DNA of 38,310 nt from a phage. How positions within the stretch are numbered: the stretch's first letter is position 1; each line of letters starts with the position of its first letter. Shown piece by piece: positions 1-38,310 of the stretch. The notes below the pieces were generated by a model. The model saw nothing but the letters and a program-made list of their open reading frames with translations. It ran no database searches and was not told where the DNA came from. Position numbers and translations under genes: made by a program. Location of the stretch: sequence record PX946180.1. One strand, 5' to 3'.

Positions 1-857
1 GGGCATATTCGCAAGCAGGAGATTCCAGAGGTTCGACTCAAATCCTGATTAGTGATTGCCACACCGGCGATAACACTAAGATTGATATTTACGTGTACAA
101 CGAAATCGGAAGCCTGTCTGAGATACTGATATCCAACCCTATGGTGCGAAGAACCACGCAACCAGATGGTGCCGTAATAGCCCTTCAGGGGACTCGCGTA
201 AGCTGTAATGGTGGCAGCATTGTTAAGTCTGGCGACAGACTAACAGTACCGTGCTTCTCTCTGTTTAATACAGATAGTGCAGCTGTGCGTGGGGTTACAG
301 TTGGTAATGTGGGGCAATTCCTGAGTCAGTCAGGGGCTAACAACTCCCTTGTTGCTAACTGTACTGTGAACTGTAGCATTGTAGGAATAGGAGGGGAAGG
401 CACTACCTATGTAGGTAATAAATTCATTCATGGTGGTGCAGGCACAACAGATGTTGCAATTGATGCCTCGACATCTATTAACTATATTCTTTCCAATACC
501 TTCTCTGGTTTCTATCGTAATATATCTTGGAACTCACAAGCCATGAGTATTGTAGGTAATGTGAGTACAGGAACAACTGATGTATCATTGCGTATGTTTG
601 GGGATGGTATTCAGTTGCTAACCCATTCAGGTAATAAATGGGATGCGGCGAGTAACCCCGCCATCGTTGCTACAGTTAAACGTGAAGGATCCACTACCGC
701 TAAAGCTACCGCTTATGCTAGCGCAGCCCCTACTACCCTAACGTGGTCTATTGGTGACAGGGTAATCAATAATACCCCCGCTGTAGGTAGCCCGAAAGGT
801 TGGGTGTGCATCGCTTCCGGAACTCCTGGAACGTGGGTTAGCGAAGGTAATTTGTAA
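1..857 (+). CDS. tail fiber/tailspike, 3' part (continuation of the ORF starting at 36692 across the contig overlap); beta-helix depolymerase-like C-terminal region
   Basis: Same reading frame as 36692..38310 once the 127-bp terminal overlap is collapsed; Gly/Asn/Thr/Ser-rich repeats typical of right-handed beta-helix tailspikes; stop codon ends at 857. Confidence 0.85.
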   Translation, partial: AYSQAGDSRGSTQILISDCHTGDNTKIDIYVYNEIGSLSEILISNPMVRRTTQPDGAVIALQGTRVSCNGGSIVKSGDRLTVPCFSLFNTDSAAVRGVTVGNVGQFLSQSGANNSLVANCTVNCSIVGIGGEGTTYVGNKFIHGGAGTTDVAIDASTSINYILSNTFSGFYRNISWNSQAMSIVGNVSTGTTDVSLRMFGDGIQLLTHSGNKWDAASNPAIVATVKREGSTTAKATAYASAAPTTLTWSIGDRVINNTPAVGSPKGWVCIASGTPGTWVSEGNL

Positions 858-953
858 AATAAGGCTCCTTTGGAGGTAGAGGCTAACTACACGCTGACCA
901 ACGCATGGTAACAACTTTGGGTCACGGACGACCCGCTTTAAACTGGAGGTTTT

Positions 954-1148
954 ATGATTGAGTTAGACTTCAAGAATGAGGTCCTTAAAGCCTCTCCTAT
1001 CGTCGGGACCGCTGCGGCTGATGGTGCCAGTCGGTTCTTCTTCGGACTTACACTGAACGAATGGTTCTACGTTGCAGCTATCGCGTACACCGTTGTCCAG
1101 ATTGGTGTGTTAGTCTACAAAACGATTAAAGGAGGTGGTAAAACATGA
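954..1148 (+). CDS. class II holin (T7 gp17.5-like)
   Basis: 64 aa, one hydrophobic segment, recalled similarity to T7 gp17.5 (IVGT..FFGL.LNEWFYVAAIAYTVVQIG); lies between tail fiber and small terminase as in T7. Confidence 0.85.
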   Translation: MIELDFKNEVLKASPIVGTAAADGASRFFFGLTLNEWFYVAAIAYTVVQIGVLVYKTIKGGGKT

Positions 1149-1408
1149 CGCAGATGGACTTAGAGAAGTTCCTCTTAATGCTAGATACTGAACGTGCTCG
1201 ACTCATGCTGCAAGACCTGCGGGATGACTCTAAGCGTTCACCTCAGCTTTACAACGCCATTGAGAAGCTACTGGCTCGTCACAACTTCGTGCTAAGCAAG
1301 GTGTCTGTTGACGAGAAGACGCTAGCTGATATGGAGGCCCTGAACGCAGAGTACGATAAGGTGCTCTCCGCTACGGAAGATAATGACACTGGATATGGAG
1401 TGCAGTAA
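1145..1408 (+). CDS. terminase small subunit (T7 gp18-like)
   Basis: 87 aa; RSPQLYNAIEKLL motif matches recalled T7 gp18; ATG overlaps holin stop; AGGAGG RBS upstream. Confidence 0.85.
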   Translation: MTQMDLEKFLLMLDTERARLMLQDLRDDSKRSPQLYNAIEKLLARHNFVLSKVSVDEKTLADMEALNAEYDKVLSATEDNDTGYGVQ

Positions 1409-1422
1409 ATCTCTTAAGTGTT

Positions 1423-1460
1423 AGACTCAAGGTCATCGTCAGGTGGCCTTTATGATTAAC
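1423..1460 (+). promoter_or_regulatory. R1.1-like RNase III processing element (R18.5 position)
   Basis: Motif AGACTCAAGGTCAT..GTGGCCTTTATGATTA, one of four copies (also 6468, 9884, 17126); GTGGCCTTTATGATT core matches my recollection of the T7 R1.1 site. Confidence 0.5.
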
Positions 1461-1509
1461 ACTACGCGAGGTGCGATCTCGTGAAATCTGAGAAACAAGG
1501 AGGGCAACT

Positions 1510-1947
1510 ATGCTCAAACTTTTACGACAGGCCGTCCCTTGGCTGGTGGCAGGACTCCTGTTCTGCTCAGGTTACTGGGTGGCAGACAATAAGTGGGAGG
1601 CAAAGGTAAACGATGAATACATCACGAAACTTAAGGCACGAGAGAATCAACGGGCTGCTGTCCAAGGTGAAATCGACAAAGTGTCAGCAGAGTGGCAAGA
1701 CAAGATGTCCGCGCTGGAAGGCTCTACTGATAGGATTATTGCTGACCTTCAGTCTGACAATAAGCGGCTGCGCATCCGAGTCAACACCTCAGGTCTCACC
1801 GAGTCGGATATCAGTCGATGCTTCCCTAATGGTAGAGTCGAACTACACCCAGAAACTTCTAAAAGTCTTATCCGAATAACTCAGGAGGCAGACCTTAAGG
1901 AGAAGGCTCTTCAGGACACAATAAGGAGGCTTCAAGGTGTTAAGTGA
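1510..1947 (+). CDS. i-spanin Rz (T7 gp18.5-like)
   Basis: 145 aa; N-terminal TM segment followed by a charged coiled-coil region; position after small terminase. Confidence 0.8.
   Translation: MLKLLRQAVPWLVAGLLFCSGYWVADNKWEAKVNDEYITKLKARENQRAAVQGEIDKVSAEWQDKMSALEGSTDRIIADLQSDNKRLRIRVNTSGLTESDISRCFPNGRVELHPETSKSLIRITQEADLKEKALQDTIRRLQGVK
1613..1879 (+). CDS. o-spanin Rz1 embedded in the +1 frame of Rz (true start uncertain, probably internal)
   Basis: Embedded ORF with lipobox-like LTISGC followed by Pro/Ser-rich tail, typical of Rz1 lipoproteins; the first ~35 residues of the tracked ORF are probably not translated. Confidence 0.55.
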   Translation: MNTSRNLRHERINGLLSKVKSTKCQQSGKTRCPRWKALLIGLLLTFSLTISGCASESTPQVSPSRISVDASLMVESNYTQKLLKVLSE

Positions 1948-2374
1948 TTACTACAAAGTGGACCAGGCGAGTCCATCCGGTCTGGTCTCCGTTAGGACTG
2001 GAAAGCCTGTGGGGACGTTAAGTCGGATGGGATATTGGATAGTACAGACACGAAGTCTAGGCAGTAAGCGGGCACATCGCGTGATATGGGAACTAACCAA
2101 TGGTCCTATACCACATGGTATGCAAATAGACCACATCGACAGGAATCCCAGCAATAATACCTTAAGTAACTTACGGCTCGTTACTGCCGCTGAGAACACT
2201 TGGAATACTGGTAGCCATTATGACTCTAAGACAGGAGTGAAGTGCGTTACCCGTCACCAGAATGGTTATAGGATTCAGGTTAAACGCGGTAATGTCTATA
2301 TGCGAACAACACGTCCTACTTTAGAGGAGGCTATCTCTGTCCGGGACCTAATGCTGGAGGGACTCTATGTCTAA
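1937..2374 (+). CDS. HNH homing endonuclease (HNH_3 motif plus AP2-like DNA-binding region)
   Basis: 145 aa; motif [37 protein letters not shown]; overlaps Rz stop and large terminase start; T7 has no gene here. Confidence 0.85.
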
Positions 2375-4133
2375 GAAAACACCTGTTGAAAGACAGGCAG
2401 AAATGACCCAAAGGATGAGGGACGATTTCGTGTTCTTCATCTTCGTTCTCTGGAAAGCTCTTAGCCTTCCGGTTCCAACCCGCTGCCAGATAGATATGTG
2501 TAAGAAGCTGGCTGCTGGGGATAATCGCCGCTTCATCCTTCAGGCGTTCCGTGGTATTGGCAAGTCGTTTCTGACCTGTGGTTTCGTGGTCTGGAAACTA
2601 TGGAACAACCCAGACTTGAAGTTCATGATTGTGTCGGCCTCAAAGGAACGAGCCGATGCGAACTCCATCTTCATCAAGAGAATCATCGACCTCATGCCTC
2701 AGCTTCAGGAACTCAAACCTAAGCAGGGACAGCGAGATGCGGTTATCAGCTTCGACGTTGGGCCAGCCAAGCCAGACCACTCACCTTCTGTTAAGTCCGT
2801 TGGTATCACTGGTCAGTTGACTGGTAGTCGTGCTGACATACTGATTGCAGATGACGTGGAGGTTCCTAATAACTCTGCGACTCAGGCTGCACGAGACCGT
2901 CTGTCAGAGCTTGTGAAAGAGTTCGACGCTATCCTGAAGCCGGGAGGTACAATCATCTATCTGGGTACGCCTCAGAACGAGATGACCCTGTATCGTGAGC
3001 TGGAGGGTCGCGGCTATACGACGACTATCTGGCCTGCACGTTACCCTCGAGATAAGAAGGACTGGCAGTCTTACGGCGACCGTCTGGCTCCTATGCTTCA
3101 GGCAGAGCTGGAAGAGGACCCTGAATCCTTCTACTGGCGTCCGACCGATGAGGTACGATTCGATGATACGGACCTGAAGGAACGTGAGCTGTCCTATGGT
3201 AAGGCTGGCTTCGCGCTACAGTTCATGCTTAACCCGAACCTGAGTGATGCTGAGAAGTACCCTCTGAAGCTCCGTGACCTTATCGTAGCCGACTTGGACC
3301 CAGCGTCCAGCCCAATGGTCTACCAATGGTTGCCAAACCCTCAGAACAAGCGTGAGGACGTTCCTAACGTTGGACTCATGGGTGACTCATACCACACGTA
3401 TCAGACTGTAGGTTCTGCCTTCAGTTCGTACACCCAGAAGATTCTGGTCATTGACCCTAGTGGTCGTGGTAAGGATGAAACTGGTTATGCGGTACTGTAT
3501 CAGCTAAACGGCTACATCTTCGCTATGGAAGTTGGTGGTATGCGTGGTGGTTATGAAGACTCTACGCTGGAAGCCTTGGCTAAGATTGGTCGTAAGTGGA
3601 AGGTCAACGAATACGTCATTGAGGGTAACTTCGGTGATGGTATGTACCTTGAGCTATTCAAGCCTGTAGCGGCACGTATCCATCCTGCTGCTGTAACTGA
3701 AGTGAAGAGTAAGGGTCAGAAAGAACTCCGCATCTGTGACGTTCTGGAGCCTATCATGGGGTCTCACCGACTTATCGTTAACGCTTCTGCTATCGTCCAA
3801 GACTACCAGACAGCCTCTGATAAGGACGGCGTTCGTAACCCTATCTACTCTCTCTTCTACCAGATGACACGTATCTCTCGTGAACGTGGAGCCTTGGCAC
3901 ATGATGACCGACTTGATGCTCTGGCTATAGGTGTACAGTTCTTCGTTGAGTCTATGGCTAAGGATGCCAACAAAGGCGAACGTGAAGTCACTGAGGAGTG
4001 GCTGGAGGAACAGATGGAGAACCCACGGAAAGGCTTCGAGTCCATCCACACTGAGTTCTGGGACAATGGTGTCCGGGTAACTCACGATACGGGCGATGAG
4101 CTTGGGCTAGGGTCATACGTTACGTTCCACTAG
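2367..4133 (+). CDS. terminase large subunit (T7 gp19-like)
   Basis: 588 aa, collinear with recalled T7 gp19 (586 aa); Walker A-like GIGKS and nuclease region present. Confidence 0.95.
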
Positions 4134-32739: not shown

Positions 32740-35700
32740 ATGGCGACTCGTGGTATTCGCAATAACAATCCGGGGAACATCCGGGTAAGTAAGGACCAAT
32801 GGGAAGGAATGACTGGAGATGATGGCGCATTCGTCACCTTCGATAGTCCAGAGTCTGGCGTCCGAGCTTTAGGTAAAAACCTGCTGTCCTACGGTCGCCA
32901 AGGATATGACTCCATCGAGAAGATTATCAACCGATGGGCACCTCCTAACGAGAACGACACTCAGGCTTATATTGACTCAGTGGTGGCTGCGACTGGTATT
33001 CCAGCTACCCAGAGTCTAGACCTCTCTGACCCGGACACCCTGTCTTCTCTGGCACAAGCTATCAGCTTCCATGAGACAGGCTCCCGGTACGACCCTGAAG
33101 TCTATCAGCAGGGAGTCGCAAGAGCACTCAACGGTATCAGCCCAAAGACTCCACCAGTAAGCGCTAACGTATTTGACGCCCTCACGGAAGGACTCAAGGC
33201 TAAACCTAAAGTAGCTCTGGGCGAGAACCTTCCGACCGCTGCTGGTCTAAACATTGAGGGTCAAGCACCTGAAGCTCCCAACGAATCGTTCGGTGAGATG
33301 TTCTATAAAGCTACTGGGGAGACCATGCAGGAACGAGAGGACCGCTCTACGTGGTTCGGTTTCGGTGCGGCTACAGAAGCTGAAGTGAAGAACTCTATGG
33401 TCGGCGTGGCTATCCGCGCTGGTCAGACCGAGGACTCACTTGATGTCATTGGCGATGTGTTCAACCCGACCCGCTGGAACAACCATAAGTGGTCTCGTGA
33501 GGAGCTGGACCAGATTCGTAACTCTGGGGTTCTGCCTCAGTATTATGGGGTAATTACTGGTGGCTCCCCTCAGAACCTGACCGAGCTTATTAACTTGGCG
33601 CTTGAGAACCAGAAGTTGGACCAAGAGAAGGCCAAGGCCGGGACTGGCGCTCAGTTAGCCGCTGGTGTGATTGGTGCTGGTGTAGACCCGCTGACCTACG
33701 TTCCTATCGCTGGACAGGTTGGCAAAGGTGGTAAGCTGGTCAACAAGATGTTCACCGTGGCTGCTCAATCTGGAGCACTTGCTGGTGTATCAGAGATGGC
33801 CCGCACCTCAGTGGCTGGTGGTGATGCTCATGTGGCTGAGGCTATCCTTGGTGGTGCTCTCTTCGGTGGTGGCATGACGGCTATCGCTGATGGACTAGGC
33901 AGAGCCTTAGGTCGTAACACTAACGAGTTCGCTGGCCCAGCTACACGTCTGGAAGCTCGTGAGACAGCCCGTAACGTTGATGGTCAGGACCTGTCTCGTC
34001 TCCCTATTCAGGAAGGTGAGCAGACCTTTAGTCATCAAGGCGTTAAGTTCGCTGACGTTCCGAATGAGCCAGGCAGTGTACGACTTGAAGATGGTTCAAT
34101 CCTGATTGGTGAGAACCCTCTGAACCCTAAGACACGTCAAGTCTTTGACGAAGTGATTGAGCCGGAACGTGCAGCTGCTGGTGTGAACCTTGGTGGGCTA
34201 ACTGAGATTGGCCTGAAGCTGCTTCGGTCAGAGAACCCTGAGATTCGTGGAGTCGCTGCCGACTTAGTGCGCTCACCGACTGGTATGCAGTCAGGGGCCT
34301 CAGGTAAAATCGGGACCACTGCGTCAGACGTATTCGAAAGACTTCGTGCTGTGGACCATCGGTTCTACAACGACATCGATGATGCGGTTACTGAGGCACT
34401 AAAGGACCCGTACTTCCAGACAGCATTCTGGAGAGACTCTGGCGCATTCCGTCAGGACATCTACCAGCGTGTGTCTATGGCTATCGAAGATGGTAGTGGG
34501 AACCTGAAGGCTGAACTGACTCCGGGAGAACTGAAAGTCTATGACCTGCTGAAGAACCAGTTCGACGCCAAGCGTGAGATGATGGAGAACCCGGCTATGT
34601 TTGGTCGCCCAGACGCTCAGTCTATCTTTCCGGGTAGCCGCTTCAAGGGAACCTACGTCCCTCATGTGTATAGCAAACAGATGAAGGATTTGTACATCAA
34701 GGAGCTTGGTAGTCCAGAGGCGTTGCAGGAGGCCATCAAAAAGTCATGGTTGACCAGCTATGCGTCTCGACCTGAAGTCAAGAAACGCGTGGACGAGGCA
34801 CTCTTAGAGGCTGACCCTACGTTGACTCCAGAGGGACTTTCTGCTGCGGTCGATAAGTACGCCAACGATAAGGCTTACGGTATCTCTCACACCGAGCAGT
34901 TCGAACGTTCATCCGTAATGGAAGAGAACATCAACGGTCTGGTTGGTCTGGAGAACAACAGCTTCCTTGAGGCTCGTAACCTGTTCGATAGCGATATGTC
35001 AATCGTCCTGCCTAACGGTCAGACCTTCAGTGTCAACAACCTGCGTGAGTGGGACATGGACAAGATTGTCCCGGCCTACAACCGTCGAGTTAATGGCGAT
35101 ATTGCTATCATGGCTGGTACAGGCAAAACCACGAAGGACATGAAGGACTTGGTTGAGACCATGATGAACAAGGCTGGGGATGACGGTAAATTGAAAGGTG
35201 AGGTATCTACCTTACGTGACACCTTGAAGATTCTCACTGGTCGTGCTCGACGTGATGGTGCTGATGATGCAGCCTTCGCTACAGTGATGCGCACAATGAC
35301 AGACCTATCGTTCTTCGCTAAGAATGCCTATATGGGTGTTCAGAACTTAACGGAGATTGGTGGTATGCTGGCTCGTGGCAACGTTCGCGCCCTGCTGCAT
35401 GGAGTCCCGATGTTCCGTGACCTAGCCTTCCGTAACAAGAAGGTAGGGGCTTCAGAGATTAAGGACCTGCACAATGTTATCTTCGGTAAGGAACTGGATG
35501 ACTCAATCCGTCCGTCTAAACAGGATGTCATTGACCGTCTGCGGTCTTACAGTGACCTTGGTCGTGGTACAGCTACAGCTCTGGGGACTGCCAAGTATTA
35601 CACTGGTGAACTTGCAGTACGCTCTCCGTTCACTAAAGTCCTCAATGGTACGACCAACTACCTGTTAGATGCTGGACGTCAAGGCTTCCTGTCTGACATC

Positions 35701-36627
35701 GTTGAGCATAGCCTGACTGGTAGTAAGCGTAAGTTCGATGACCGCTGGCTGAAGACCGCTGGTATATCTGACGAGCAGTGGAATGGCATTAAGTCCCTAA
35801 TCCGTGAGTCAGTGACTCGTGGTCCAGACGGGAAGTACACCATCAAGGATAAGAAGGCGTTCAGTCAGGACCCAAGAGCTATGGACCTGTGGCGTATGGG
35901 TGACACCATCGCTGACGAAACGTTACTCCGTCCTCATAAGCTGTCCAACATGGACGCCAAGGCTTATGGTCCTCTCGCTAAGACTGTCCTTCAGTTTAAG
36001 AACTTCGTCATCAAGTCCATCAATGGGAGAACCATGCGAACCTTCTATAACGCCACGAAGAACAACCGAGCGATGGATGCTGCTCTGTCCACTGTGATGT
36101 CTATGGGACTTGCCGGTATCTACTACATGGCTCAGGCGCACGTCAAGGCTTACGCTATGCAGGATGGTCGAGACCGTGATTACCTCAAGCAAGCTCTGGA
36201 CCCGACGATGATTGGCTATGCGGCTCTGTCCCGTAGTTCACATCTGGGTGGTCCACTTGGGGTAGCTAACATTCTGGGTGGCATCGCTGGGTATGAGGAC
36301 ACTAAGATGCTCCGTTCGTCTATCCTACCCCGTTCGCCTACAGAGAAGCCTGAGCGTGCCATCGCGTATGGTGCAGCTACAAGTGACCCTGTGATGAATG
36401 TTGTTGGTAACTTCTTGGAGCAGGTCCCAGCTTTCGGATATGCTGCTAACGTAGGCGCTTCGGCTTACAACTTGGCTGGCTACCTCAAGGCTGATACTCG
36501 TGTCAACGAGCGTGACTACATGACCGGGATGTATAATACGTTCCGTGAACTGGTTCCGAACGACCCCATTACCCAGAAGCTGTTGCTTGGAACGTTTGAA
36601 GAGCAAGGCATCCACATCAAGGACTAA
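32740..36627 (+). CDS. internal virion protein D (T7 gp16-like) with non-T7 N-terminal domain
   Basis: 1295 aa; from about residue 200 onward collinear with recalled T7 gp16 (RLEARETARN, VRSPTGMQSGASGK, KAYGISH, RRVNGDIAIM, LRPHK, ALSRSS); the first ~130 aa carry GIRNNNPGNIR instead of the T7 transglycosylase TESRF region. Confidence 0.9.
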   Translation: MATRGIRNNNPGNIRVSKDQWEGMTGDDGAFVTFDSPESGVRALGKNLLSYGRQGYDSIEKIINRWAPPNENDTQAYIDSVVAATGIPATQSLDLSDPDTLSSLAQAISFHETGSRYDPEVYQQGVARALNGISPKTPPVSANVFDALTEGLKAKPKVALGENLPTAAGLNIEGQAPEAPNESFGEMFYKATGETMQEREDRSTWFGFGAATEAEVKNSMVGVAIRAGQTEDSLDVIGDVFNPTRWNNHKWSREELDQIRNSGVLPQYYGVITGGSPQNLTELINLALENQKLDQEKAKAGTGAQLAAGVIGAGVDPLTYVPIAGQVGKGGKLVNKMFTVAAQSGALAGVSEMARTSVAGGDAHVAEAILGGALFGGGMTAIADGLGRALGRNTNEFAGPATRLEARETARNVDGQDLSRLPIQEGEQTFSHQGVKFADVPNEPGSVRLEDGSILIGENPLNPKTRQVFDEVIEPERAAAGVNLGGLTEIGLKLLRSENPEIRGVAADLVRSPTGMQSGASGKIGTTASDVFERLRAVDHRFYNDIDDAVTEALKDPYFQTAFWRDSGAFRQDIYQRVSMAIEDGSGNLKAELTPGELKVYDLLKNQFDAKREMMENPAMFGRPDAQSIFPGSRFKGTYVPHVYSKQMKDLYIKELGSPEALQEAIKKSWLTSYASRPEVKKRVDEALLEADPTLTPEGLSAAVDKYANDKAYGISHTEQFERSSVMEENINGLVGLENNSFLEARNLFDSDMSIVLPNGQTFSVNNLREWDMDKIVPAYNRRVNGDIAIMAGTGKTTKDMKDLVETMMNKAGDDGKLKGEVSTLRDTLKILTGRARRDGADDAAFATVMRTMTDLSFFAKNAYMGVQNLTEIGGMLARGNVRALLHGVPMFRDLAFRNKKVGASEIKDLHNVIFGKELDDSIRPSKQDVIDRLRSYSDLGRGTATALGTAKYYTGELAVRSPFTKVLNGTTNYLLDAGRQGFLSDIVEHSLTGSKRKFDDRWLKTAGISDEQWNGIKSLIRESVTRGPDGKYTIKDKKAFSQDPRAMDLWRMGDTIADETLLRPHKLSNMDAKAYGPLAKTVLQFKNFVIKSINGRTMRTFYNATKNNRAMDAALSTVMSMGLAGIYYMAQAHVKAYAMQDGRDRDYLKQALDPTMIGYAALSRSSHLGGPLGVANILGGIAGYEDTKMLRSSILPRSPTEKPERAIAYGAATSDPVMNVVGNFLEQVPAFGYAANVGASAYNLAGYLKADTRVNERDYMTGMYNTFRELVPNDPITQKLLLGTFEEQGIHIKD

Positions 36628-36645
36628 ACTATCACTATAGGAAAC
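36623..36645 (+). promoter_or_regulatory. phage RNAP promoter (phi17-like), +1 G at 36640; imperfect 5' stem follows
   Basis: GACTAAACTATCACTATAGGAAACGG; inverted repeat AAACGGGAG / CTCCGTTT within the first 35 nt of the transcript. Confidence 0.8.
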
Positions 36646-36691
36646 GGGAGGCGCTACCATAGGTCTCCGTTTAAATCACAAAGGAGGCATA

Positions 36692-38310
36692 ATGTCCACG
36701 ATTACACAATTCCCTTCAGGAAACACTCAGTACAGGATTGAGTTCGACTACCTAGCCAGAACGTTTATTGTTGTTACGCTGGTGAATAGCTCTAACCCTA
36801 CCCTGAACCGTGTACTGGAAGTTGGTCGAGATTACCGATTCCTTAATCCAACGATGCTTGAGATGTTGGTTGACCAATCAGGTTTCGACATCGTTCGTAT
36901 TCACCGTCAGACTGGAACTGACTTAGTGGTAGACTTCAGGAATGGCTCAGTGTTGACAGCTAGTGACCTGACCAATGCAGAGCTTCAGGCTATCCATATT
37001 GCAGAAGAAGGTCGAGACCAAACTGTTGACTTAGCGAAGGAATATGCCGATGCTGCTGGTAACTCTGCTGGCAACGCTAAGGACAGCGAGGACGAAGCAC
37101 GCCGAATCGCTGAGAGTATCAAGGCAGCTGGTCTAACTGGCTATATTACCCGTAGATCCTTCGAGAAAGGCTTCAACGTTACAACATGGAACGAGGTCCT
37201 GCTATGGGAGGATGATGGTGAATATTACCGCTGGGATGGTACGCTCCCAAAGAACGTTCCTGCTGGCTCAACTCCTGAATCATCTGGTGGAATTGGATTA
37301 GGAGCGTGGGTTAGTGTTGGTGATGCATCGCTGAGATCTCAGATAGCCTCCGTAACCGGATTTAATCTTGTAGGTCAGGTGCCAGATGTAACTACATTAC
37401 GCAATACAGAACCGACAACAGACAGCAAGAGAATCCTCCTTCGCGAATACACAGCAGGCACAGGATATGGTGGCGGTCAGTTACGAGCAATCCTTGACGG
37501 AAGCTCTTACGTTGACAACGGCGTTACTGTGTTTAAAACAACTGGTGGTGCTGCATGGGTCCGCGTTAACGCAGATATCATTACATCCTTCATGGCGGGT
37601 GCTGTGCCTGATGCAGGTACTACTGATAACACGGCTGCTATTAATCGCTTCCTCGCCGCAGGTAAGAAATTGGTTATGAGGGATGGTATCTTTGGTCATT
37701 CTGGTCAAATTTCTTTGCAAACAGGTATATCTCTTGATTTATCTGGAGCGACAATAAAACCATCATCGACTCTACTCACCGCTGCTTGGGTGGGGAGCAA
37801 CTTGTTTGATGTAAAAATAACCGGCGGCGTGTTTGAAGGAACTGGCTTGGACAATACAGCTGGCAACGGCCATCTTTTGCTGCTTTCTAATTGCCAAGGG
37901 TGCTACGTAGATGGCACTACATTTACGAAATCTCCGCAGGATGGATTGCGATTTGTATCTTGTACACGATGTATTGCGAGTAACGCTATTTCGTACAACA
38001 ACCTTTCTGTAGGTATTCAAGACCGCGATGGGGATTACAACACTATCATTGGGTGTAAATGTAACGGTAATGGTAATACAGGAACGGTTGCTGGAGTTGG
38101 TGGTCGAGGTATTCTCACATGGCGTAGCTTTGGCACAAAAGTTATCGCCTGTGACGCGTTCAATAACACAGAGTATGGCATTCGGGCATATTCGCAAGCA
38201 GGAGATTCCAGAGGTTCGACTCAAATCCTGATTAGTGATTGCCACACCGGCGATAACACTAAGATTGATATTTACGTGTACAACGAAATCGGAAGCCTGT
38301 CTGAGATACT
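36692..38310 (+). CDS. tail fiber/tailspike, 5' part (T7 gp17-like N-terminal adaptor plus start of beta-helix domain); continues at 1..857
   Basis: ATG 36692 with AAGGAGG RBS; N-terminal ~150 aa resemble the recalled T7 gp17 tail-attachment domain (FDYLAR.F.VVTL, DYRF, LV.DF..GS.L.A.DL, HIAEE.RD); frame stays open to the window end and continues at position 1; total about 782 aa. Confidence 0.9.
   Translation, partial: MSTITQFPSGNTQYRIEFDYLARTFIVVTLVNSSNPTLNRVLEVGRDYRFLNPTMLEMLVDQSGFDIVRIHRQTGTDLVVDFRNGSVLTASDLTNAELQAIHIAEEGRDQTVDLAKEYADAAGNSAGNAKDSEDEARRIAESIKAAGLTGYITRRSFEKGFNVTTWNEVLLWEDDGEYYRWDGTLPKNVPAGSTPESSGGIGLGAWVSVGDASLRSQIASVTGFNLVGQVPDVTTLRNTEPTTDSKRILLREYTAGTGYGGGQLRAILDGSSYVDNGVTVFKTTGGAAWVRVNADIITSFMAGAVPDAGTTDNTAAINRFLAAGKKLVMRDGIFGHSGQISLQTGISLDLSGATIKPSSTLLTAAWVGSNLFDVKITGGVFEGTGLDNTAGNGHLLLLSNCQGCYVDGTTFTKSPQDGLRFVSCTRCIASNAISYNNLSVGIQDRDGDYNTIIGCKCNGNGNTGTVAGVGGRGILTWRSFGTKVIACDAFNNTEYGIRAYSQAGDSRGSTQILISDCHTGDNTKIDIYVYNEIGSLSEI
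38184..38310 (+). repeat. assembly overlap: exact copy of positions 1-127 (circular contig artifact)
   Basis: Direct comparison: 38184-38310 is identical to 1-127 and lies inside the tail fiber coding sequence. Confidence 0.9.

Follow-up and report, generated by a model that had tools for sequence, protein, structure and literature searches.

The kayfunaviruses are the K1F-like members of the T7 family. They rely on one receptor-binding protein, and its distal part is swapped from phage to phage, also across genera (Pas et al. 2023, PMC10408124). In one T7-like Kayfunavirus, Enterobacter cloacae phage B1, ORF47 combines a T7 tail-fiber anchor, Tail_spike_N, and a beta-helix of the pectate-lyase type (PMC12785254), and phage CBA120 has tailspikes that have been described as enzymes specific for O-antigen (Pas et al. 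2023, PMC10408124). Here, we analyzed gene 17 in phage record PX946180.1, a stretch of 38,310 nucleotides (nt) that we refer to as the window. The open reading frame (ORF) is gene 17 of a Kayfunavirus and encodes a tailspike, the phage's only receptor-binding protein, in which a T7-type anchor, a linker, Tail_spike_N, a neck, a right-handed parallel beta-helix, and a small C-terminal beta domain follow one another. This architecture and its mode of exchange have already been published; what is new is an uncharacterized subtype of the beta-helix. We consider it probable that the gene 17 product is a Kayfunavirus tailspike with an exchanged beta-helix cassette that binds and cleaves a host polysaccharide, most likely O-antigen.

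The ends of the window fall inside gene 17. Positions 1-127 are identical to positions 38184-38310 by sequence comparison, and these identical ends of 127 base pairs (bp) imply a circularized assembly that was opened within the gene and comprises 38,183 bp of unique sequence. The overlap looks like an assembler k-mer overlap, and the contig ends do not mark true T7-type terminal repeats. The original prediction for this DNA had called for joining 36692..38183 to 1..857, and the join across the 127-base overlap indeed yielded one uninterrupted plus-strand ORF of 2349 nt encoding 782 amino acids (aa). Its first part (36692..38183) encodes aa 1-497 and supplies the first base of codon 498, and its second part (1..857) runs from the remainder of that codon to aa 782 and the stop codon at 855-857. 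The start codon was confirmed by a residue-for-residue match from Met1 with PDB entry 9vvr and K1F gp17. An exact-sequence look-up of the joined 782-aa protein gave no entry in the protein collection searched.

Three Pfam families scored above threshold in the whole protein, namely Phage_T7_tail, Tail_spike_N, and Beta_helix. The first marks the T7 gp17-type N-terminal tail-attachment (anchor) domain, which spans aa 1 to ~125 (36692..37066; this and all other parts of gene 17 lie on the plus strand). Here, PF03906 matched aa 10-115 (E 1.8e-15, 57.4 bits versus a cut-off of 25.2), and a search of solved structures aligned the T7 gp17 chains 7boz, 8dsp, and 8e4g with aa 6-125 (E 5e-16 to 2e-17). 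These sequence matches of the N terminus to T7 gp17 greatly exceed what chance would give. The anchor region is 90-92% identical to gp17 of K1F and CLB_P1, and aa 1-226 closely match 9vvr, an 843-aa "Tail spike protein" (E 2e-135); the 9vvr entry contains 18 chains, a number that fits six trimers. In the entries 9lna, 8x8m, and 9m4d, as in 9vvr, a matching T7-type N-terminal anchor is part of a long chain whose name is tail spike or capsule depolymerase. Within the stretch that closely matches 9vvr lies the linker (aa ~126-154, 37067..37153), which is charged, Ala-rich, and probably helical. It is followed by the Tail_spike_N domain of the TSP1/gp66 type (aa 155-211, 37154..37324; PF18668, E 3.8e-21), and in the solved-structure search CBA120 TSP1, TSP3, and TSP4 matched aa 150-238.

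The neck (aa ~216-296, 37337..37579) forms the first part of the exchanged cassette described below. Chains 5w6p and 6w4q of CBA120 TSP2 matched aa 218-344. We tentatively assigned the neck to PF27114 (Phage_tail_beta) because of how precomputed matches to this family are distributed among relatives: they are present in relatives that cover the neck and absent in relatives that start at aa ~296. In the monomer AlphaFold model used as a proxy for this part of the protein (see below), the neck had a predicted local distance difference test score (pLDDT) below 50, which suggests that it may fold only within an intertwined trimer. We also observed that few stretches are as well conserved as the neck (aa 216-296, 37337-37579) when tailspikes with differing helices are compared.

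We next turn to the distal half, which the helix dominates. Its first part, including the N-terminal cap and a ladder of Cys residues, covers aa ~297-497 (37580..38183), and its second part covers aa 498 to ~710 (1..638) and holds D505 and D526; the codon for E494 lies just upstream of the contig junction and hence in the first gene part. PF13229 (Beta_helix) matched aa 396-542 (E 6.7e-11, 42.5 bits versus a cut-off of 25.9). As a structural proxy we used the model of P0001, a relative that is 96% identical over aa 216-782 at a constant offset of 81 residues. This model contains a beta-helix of 14-15 coils, with pLDDT above 90 throughout, at the equivalent of aa ~297-710, and both the model and its fold matches identify the fold as a right-handed parallel beta-helix. 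When the proxy was compared with the PDB by Foldseek, the tailspikes of CBA120 and Det7 ranked first (E 1e-13 to 1e-7) and those of Sf6 and HK620 were also matched; among the predicted viral structures in BFVD, nearly all named matches were tail spike or tail fiber proteins. The Cys residues C401/404, C424/427, C455/457, C487, and C517 are spaced 23-32 residues apart, which equals the coil length in the strand pattern of the model, so that they sit one coil apart at equivalent turns. Beyond the helix, a small C-terminal beta domain (aa ~711-782, 639..854) was delimited from model strands and conservation. It carries the motif GWVC..G.PGTW, has a pLDDT of 80-95 in the proxy, and contains the near-invariant residues W765, C767, G771, P773, G774, T775, and W776.

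Taken together, these results agree well with the original prediction, which had described a modular tailspike with a T7-like adaptor fused to a beta-helix depolymerase-like domain; both halves were tested by Pfam and structure matches and found. The predicted T7 gp17-like N terminus corresponds to the region of PF03906 and the T7 gp17 chains (aa 6-125), and the predicted beta-helix to the Beta_helix match and the high-confidence coils of the proxy. The Gly/Asn/Thr/Ser richness claimed for the distal part is reflected in the composition of aa 151-782 (G 13.3%, T 10.6%, S 9.3%, N 6.8%), the regular Cys spacing matches the coil length, and the tailspike hits expected from a structure search were obtained with the proxy model. 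The outcome named as refuting, a fibrous T7-like C terminus, was not seen. The two-part scheme was too simple in one respect: the anchor and helix stand, but Tail_spike_N and the neck between them had been overlooked, and the helix is followed by a separate C-terminal domain of ~65 aa. We rejected two other architectures for the distal part. A fibrous T7-type distal fiber is contradicted by the lack of any T7 gp17 match past aa 125 and by a distal part that models as a beta-helix, and for a K1F-type endosialidase, K1F gp17 matched only aa 1-230 and no sialidase or chaperone family was found in Pfam at E values up to 1.

The segment from aa ~216 to the stop codon is a horizontally exchanged cassette on Kayfunavirus flanks. 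The backbone itself is clear from a 17-kb stretch that is 94-96% nucleotide-identical to the Kayfunavirus genomes Pkp-1, TH16, CLB_P1, and PE3-1. We mapped the cassette breakpoints with blastn against L001, L002, and L004, which placed the cassette at 37337..38183 and 1..868, ending 11 nt past the stop codon. The sequence matches Pkp-1 at 95% identity as far as gene nt 645 (aa 215, position 37336), and identity to the Kayfunavirus backbone resumes 14 nt past the stop (position 871), at 90% to Pkp-1. Between these points, the cassette is 94.3% nucleotide-identical, from gene nt 524 (position 37215), to a tailspike gene on a 23-kb contig that carries a tape-measure gene, NinX, and Dam, and 93.9% identical, from gene nt 666 (position 37357), to a tailspike gene on a 30-kb contig that carries a tape-measure gene, DNA polymerase A, and an Enc34-type single-stranded DNA-binding protein. 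Identity to both of these unrelated siphovirus-like contigs, L001 and L002, extends to 11 nt past the stop codon. The composition of the cassette is likewise distinct, with a GC content of 46.3% versus 50.1% for the genome and a third-codon-position GC content (GC3) of 38% versus 53-56% in gp12, gp15, gp16, and terL, a shift that fits recent import. Relatives that share the helix alone point to a second joint farther inside, at aa ~296-303. The cassette-like horizontal origin of the distal part had been overlooked in the original prediction. As a separate observation, the tailspike modules lie at 5526-7631 on L001 (the contig with NinX and Dam) and at 10001-12085 on L002 (the contig with DNA polymerase A), and their N-terminal adaptors differ.

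A mis-join during assembly could in principle mimic such an exchange, with a Kayfunavirus and a siphovirus sequence fused at their common Tail_spike_N/neck sequence. The assembly is of a short-read type with a 127-bp k-mer overlap, and the 5′ junction falls within a stretch common to both parents at ~94-95% identity (gene nt 524-645). However, this common stretch is only ~120 nt long and is not identical, and at the 3′ junction only ~11 nt are common with the siphoviral contigs, which is too little for a mis-join with a k-mer length of 127 at both ends. Moreover, the contig closes on itself within the cassette, and three 784-aa Kayfunavirus-type proteins on ~40-kb contigs (P0021-P0023) have this anchor and neck joined to a related helix. 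On these grounds we rejected an assembly chimera, which we regard as highly improbable.

The helix belongs to a family whose members, at 42-79% identity, stand behind varied N termini, including P22 Head_binding, Tail_spike_N only, T7 anchors, and others, and come from E. coli, Enterobacter, a Gamaleyavirus, a Kuttervirus, and a phage with the annotation "lateral tail fibre". Among named relatives, tailspikes from genomes of E. coli (79% identity) and Enterobacter hormaechei (71-74%) come closest, and some of these tailspikes have a P22 Head_binding domain. Among 50,697 deposited phage records, none covered at least 80% of the gene 17 protein, and the combination of anchor and helix is therefore undeposited there. 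No close relative turned up in species-representative genomes, and a single IMG/VR locus matched at 73% identity. Phage fGh-Ecl02 is included in the supplement of Pas et al., but its protein there is USL85812.1 (O8 subtype) and not USL85809.1, the one that matches here (Pas et al. 2023, PMC10408124). No literature was found on KKP 3715, the JulesPiccard lateral tail fiber, or PDB entry 9vvr.

In the mechanism that we propose, the gene 17 product would form homotrimers, as do T7 gp17 and the tailspikes of P22, Sf6, HK620, and CBA120, and by homology six trimers would be attached by their anchors where gp11 and gp12 meet in the tail. The beta-helix would bind the host surface polysaccharide in a groove lined by a W477/Y500/Y530 column and by R445, R472, and R498, and would cleave it endolytically; candidates for the catalytic carboxylates are E494, D505, and D526. 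Such cleavage would clear a path for the virion toward the outer membrane, and the polysaccharide substrate would determine the host range. Conservation was assessed in a sub-alignment of the central coils (A4), which was used for this purpose only. Relatives with as little as 29-34% identity retain E494, D505, D526, R445, R472, R498, and W477 without exception, and the three carboxylates are invariant in 16 relatives down to 29% identity. From strand periodicity in the model, we infer that E494, D526, R498, and the W477/Y500/Y530 column share one exposed face. The geometry of the helix core is closest to the AlgE4 epimerase/lyase module, and no sequence homology to the AlgE-type mannuronan C5-epimerase/lyase A-module was found through the catalytic coils.

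Several observations weigh against reading the gene 17 product as a spike that cleaves O-antigen. Profile searches of the PDB with both the full and the helix-only alignments aligned only the N-terminal cap motif to solved enzymes, so that no catalytic residue can be transferred from them. The model is that of a 96%-identical proxy and of a monomer, with groove geometry and residue exposure derived from strand periodicity. None of the relatives found has a measured activity or a known specificity, and the best helix matches in phage records (52%, 45%, and 42%) are uncharacterized. A DNA-level comparison with 5426 complete E. coli genomes gave no match to the helix and matched only the neck, at ~76% identity, in 5 of them. 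Finally, the closest backbone relatives of the phage include Klebsiella phages, with Pkp-1 and phi1_146013 among the nearest. The spikes of Klebsiella phages usually target capsule.

Capsule thus remains a serious rival to O-antigen as the substrate: the same architecture could act on a capsular (K-antigen) or other exopolysaccharide, perhaps as a lyase on uronic-acid-containing polymers, an alternative that we hold to be possible but clearly the less likely one. Apart from the Klebsiella backbone relatives, K1F, the type phage of the genus, targets capsule, the invariant R445, R472, and R498 could bind acidic sugars, and the paper on phage B1 interprets the same architecture as capsule-degrading (PMC12785254). 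The fold gives no help to capsule, since similarity at 10-17% identity does not tell substrates apart, and the closest named relatives of the spike, the E. coli and Enterobacter tailspikes with, in part, P22 Head_binding, belong to a class tied mainly to O-antigen (PMC10408124). Because of these relatives, and because such genera and Kayfunavirus itself have many receptor-binding proteins specific for O-antigen (Pas et al. 2023, PMC10408124), we lean toward O-antigen; judged from the sequence relationships, the substrate is most likely the lipopolysaccharide (LPS) O-antigen of E. coli or of a member of the Enterobacter cloacae complex. It is unlikely, though conceivable, that the target of the helix family, whether it is recognized or is processed by unusual chemistry, is a glycan that has so far not been described as a receptor for phages. 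Catalysis itself could also be doubted, as no catalytic residues could be aligned to any characterized enzyme, and the beta-helix might then only bind a glycan as an adhesin, or modify it without depolymerization, for example by epimerization. Yet E494, D505, and D526 are invariant in the family and lie on successive coils beside the conserved aromatic column. Invariant carboxylates in such an arrangement are the usual signature of active tailspikes. In addition, all phage-borne relatives found have the module at the distal end of tail proteins, a context that is mostly enzymatic among the solved fold matches, and we judge a non-depolymerizing helix to be quite improbable.

The surroundings of gene 17 are those of the gp17 slot in a T7-like genome, and the gene order is syntenic with Pkp-1. 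Upstream lies the gene for the internal virion protein gp16 (1295 aa, 32740-36627), and downstream lie the holin, terS, Rz/Rz1, HNH endonuclease, and terL genes, with the holin-to-terL span at 954-4133. A pattern scan located a phage-RNA-polymerase promoter-like site, AACTATCACTATAGGAAAC, on the plus strand immediately past the gp16 stop codon (36627..36645). The pattern AACTATCACTATAGG was matched at 10 plus-strand positions (4232, 7169, 9866, 11559, 12669, 21218, 24039, 25019, 29351, and 36627) versus 0.01 expected by chance, and in sequence these sites resemble phage RNA polymerase promoters. The site at 36627-36645 would be the analogue of the T7 promoter phi17 and would drive gene 17, whose ATG is preceded at a distance of 4 nt by a strong Shine-Dalgarno sequence, AAGGAGG (36681..36687, plus strand). 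Between the promoter-like site and this ribosome-binding site we noted an imperfect inverted repeat, AAACGGGAG...CTCCGTTT (36643-36671), which may be an RNA hairpin or processing site. Two further ORFs deserve mention. The HNH endonuclease ORF (145 aa, 1937-2374, plus strand; PHROG 99, E 5e-40) lies between Rz/Rz1 and terL and overlaps both; no gene is annotated at this position in the close relative Pkp-1, and the ORF is probably a mobile, homing-type insertion. Within gene 17, an antisense ORF of 157 aa (37772-38245, minus strand) is probably a chance ORF.

The gene 17 spike is probably the host-range determinant of the phage. It changes no concept, because modular T7-like tailspikes, and the swapping of their distal parts from genus to genus, are familiar from earlier work, but it extends the known Enterobacteriaceae tailspikes by an uncharacterized beta-helix subtype. 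A virulent T7-like podovirus and siphovirus-like contigs share the cassette at 94% nucleotide identity, which could mean that a host-range determinant has moved between virion types very recently, and the cassette boundaries (aa ~215, aa ~296-303, and the stop codon) could be useful for phage typing and for spike engineering by module swapping.

Among known systems, the gp17 spikes of other kayfunaviruses (the K1F endosialidase, LM33_P1, and PE3-1) share the genus-level backbone and gene position with gene 17. Over aa 1 to ~228, which comprise the T7-type anchor and Tail_spike_N and closely match 9vvr, identity is 90-92%; the distal module of K1F, however, is a sialidase, whereas that of gene 17 matches Beta_helix only. 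By description, B1 ORF47 has the same domain order, in a phage of 40,163 bp and with its helix reported as Pectate_lyase_3. T7 gp17 is homologous over its N-terminal ~120 residues and is similarly placed with respect to genome position and promoter arrangement. The remainder of T7 gp17 forms a coiled-coil shaft that ends in a tip without enzymatic activity. Where T7 gp17 is fibrous in its distal part, the gene 17 product thus has a beta-helix. The CBA120 (Kuttervirus) spikes TSP1-TSP4 provide the best Foldseek matches, and in sequence Tail_spike_N resembles TSP1, TSP3, and TSP4 and the neck resembles TSP2; helix identity is only 15-19%, the catalytic sites cannot be aligned, and, unlike the single gene 17 spike, the CBA120 spikes belong to a branched four-spike complex on a myovirus. 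In the tailspikes of P22-like prophages of E. coli and Enterobacter (the P0004 cluster, P0011, and P0006-P0010), the neck, helix, and C-terminal domain are the same, with 64-79% identity along all 567 aa, but their N termini consist of P22 Head_binding or of Tail_spike_N alone and attach to other virion types.

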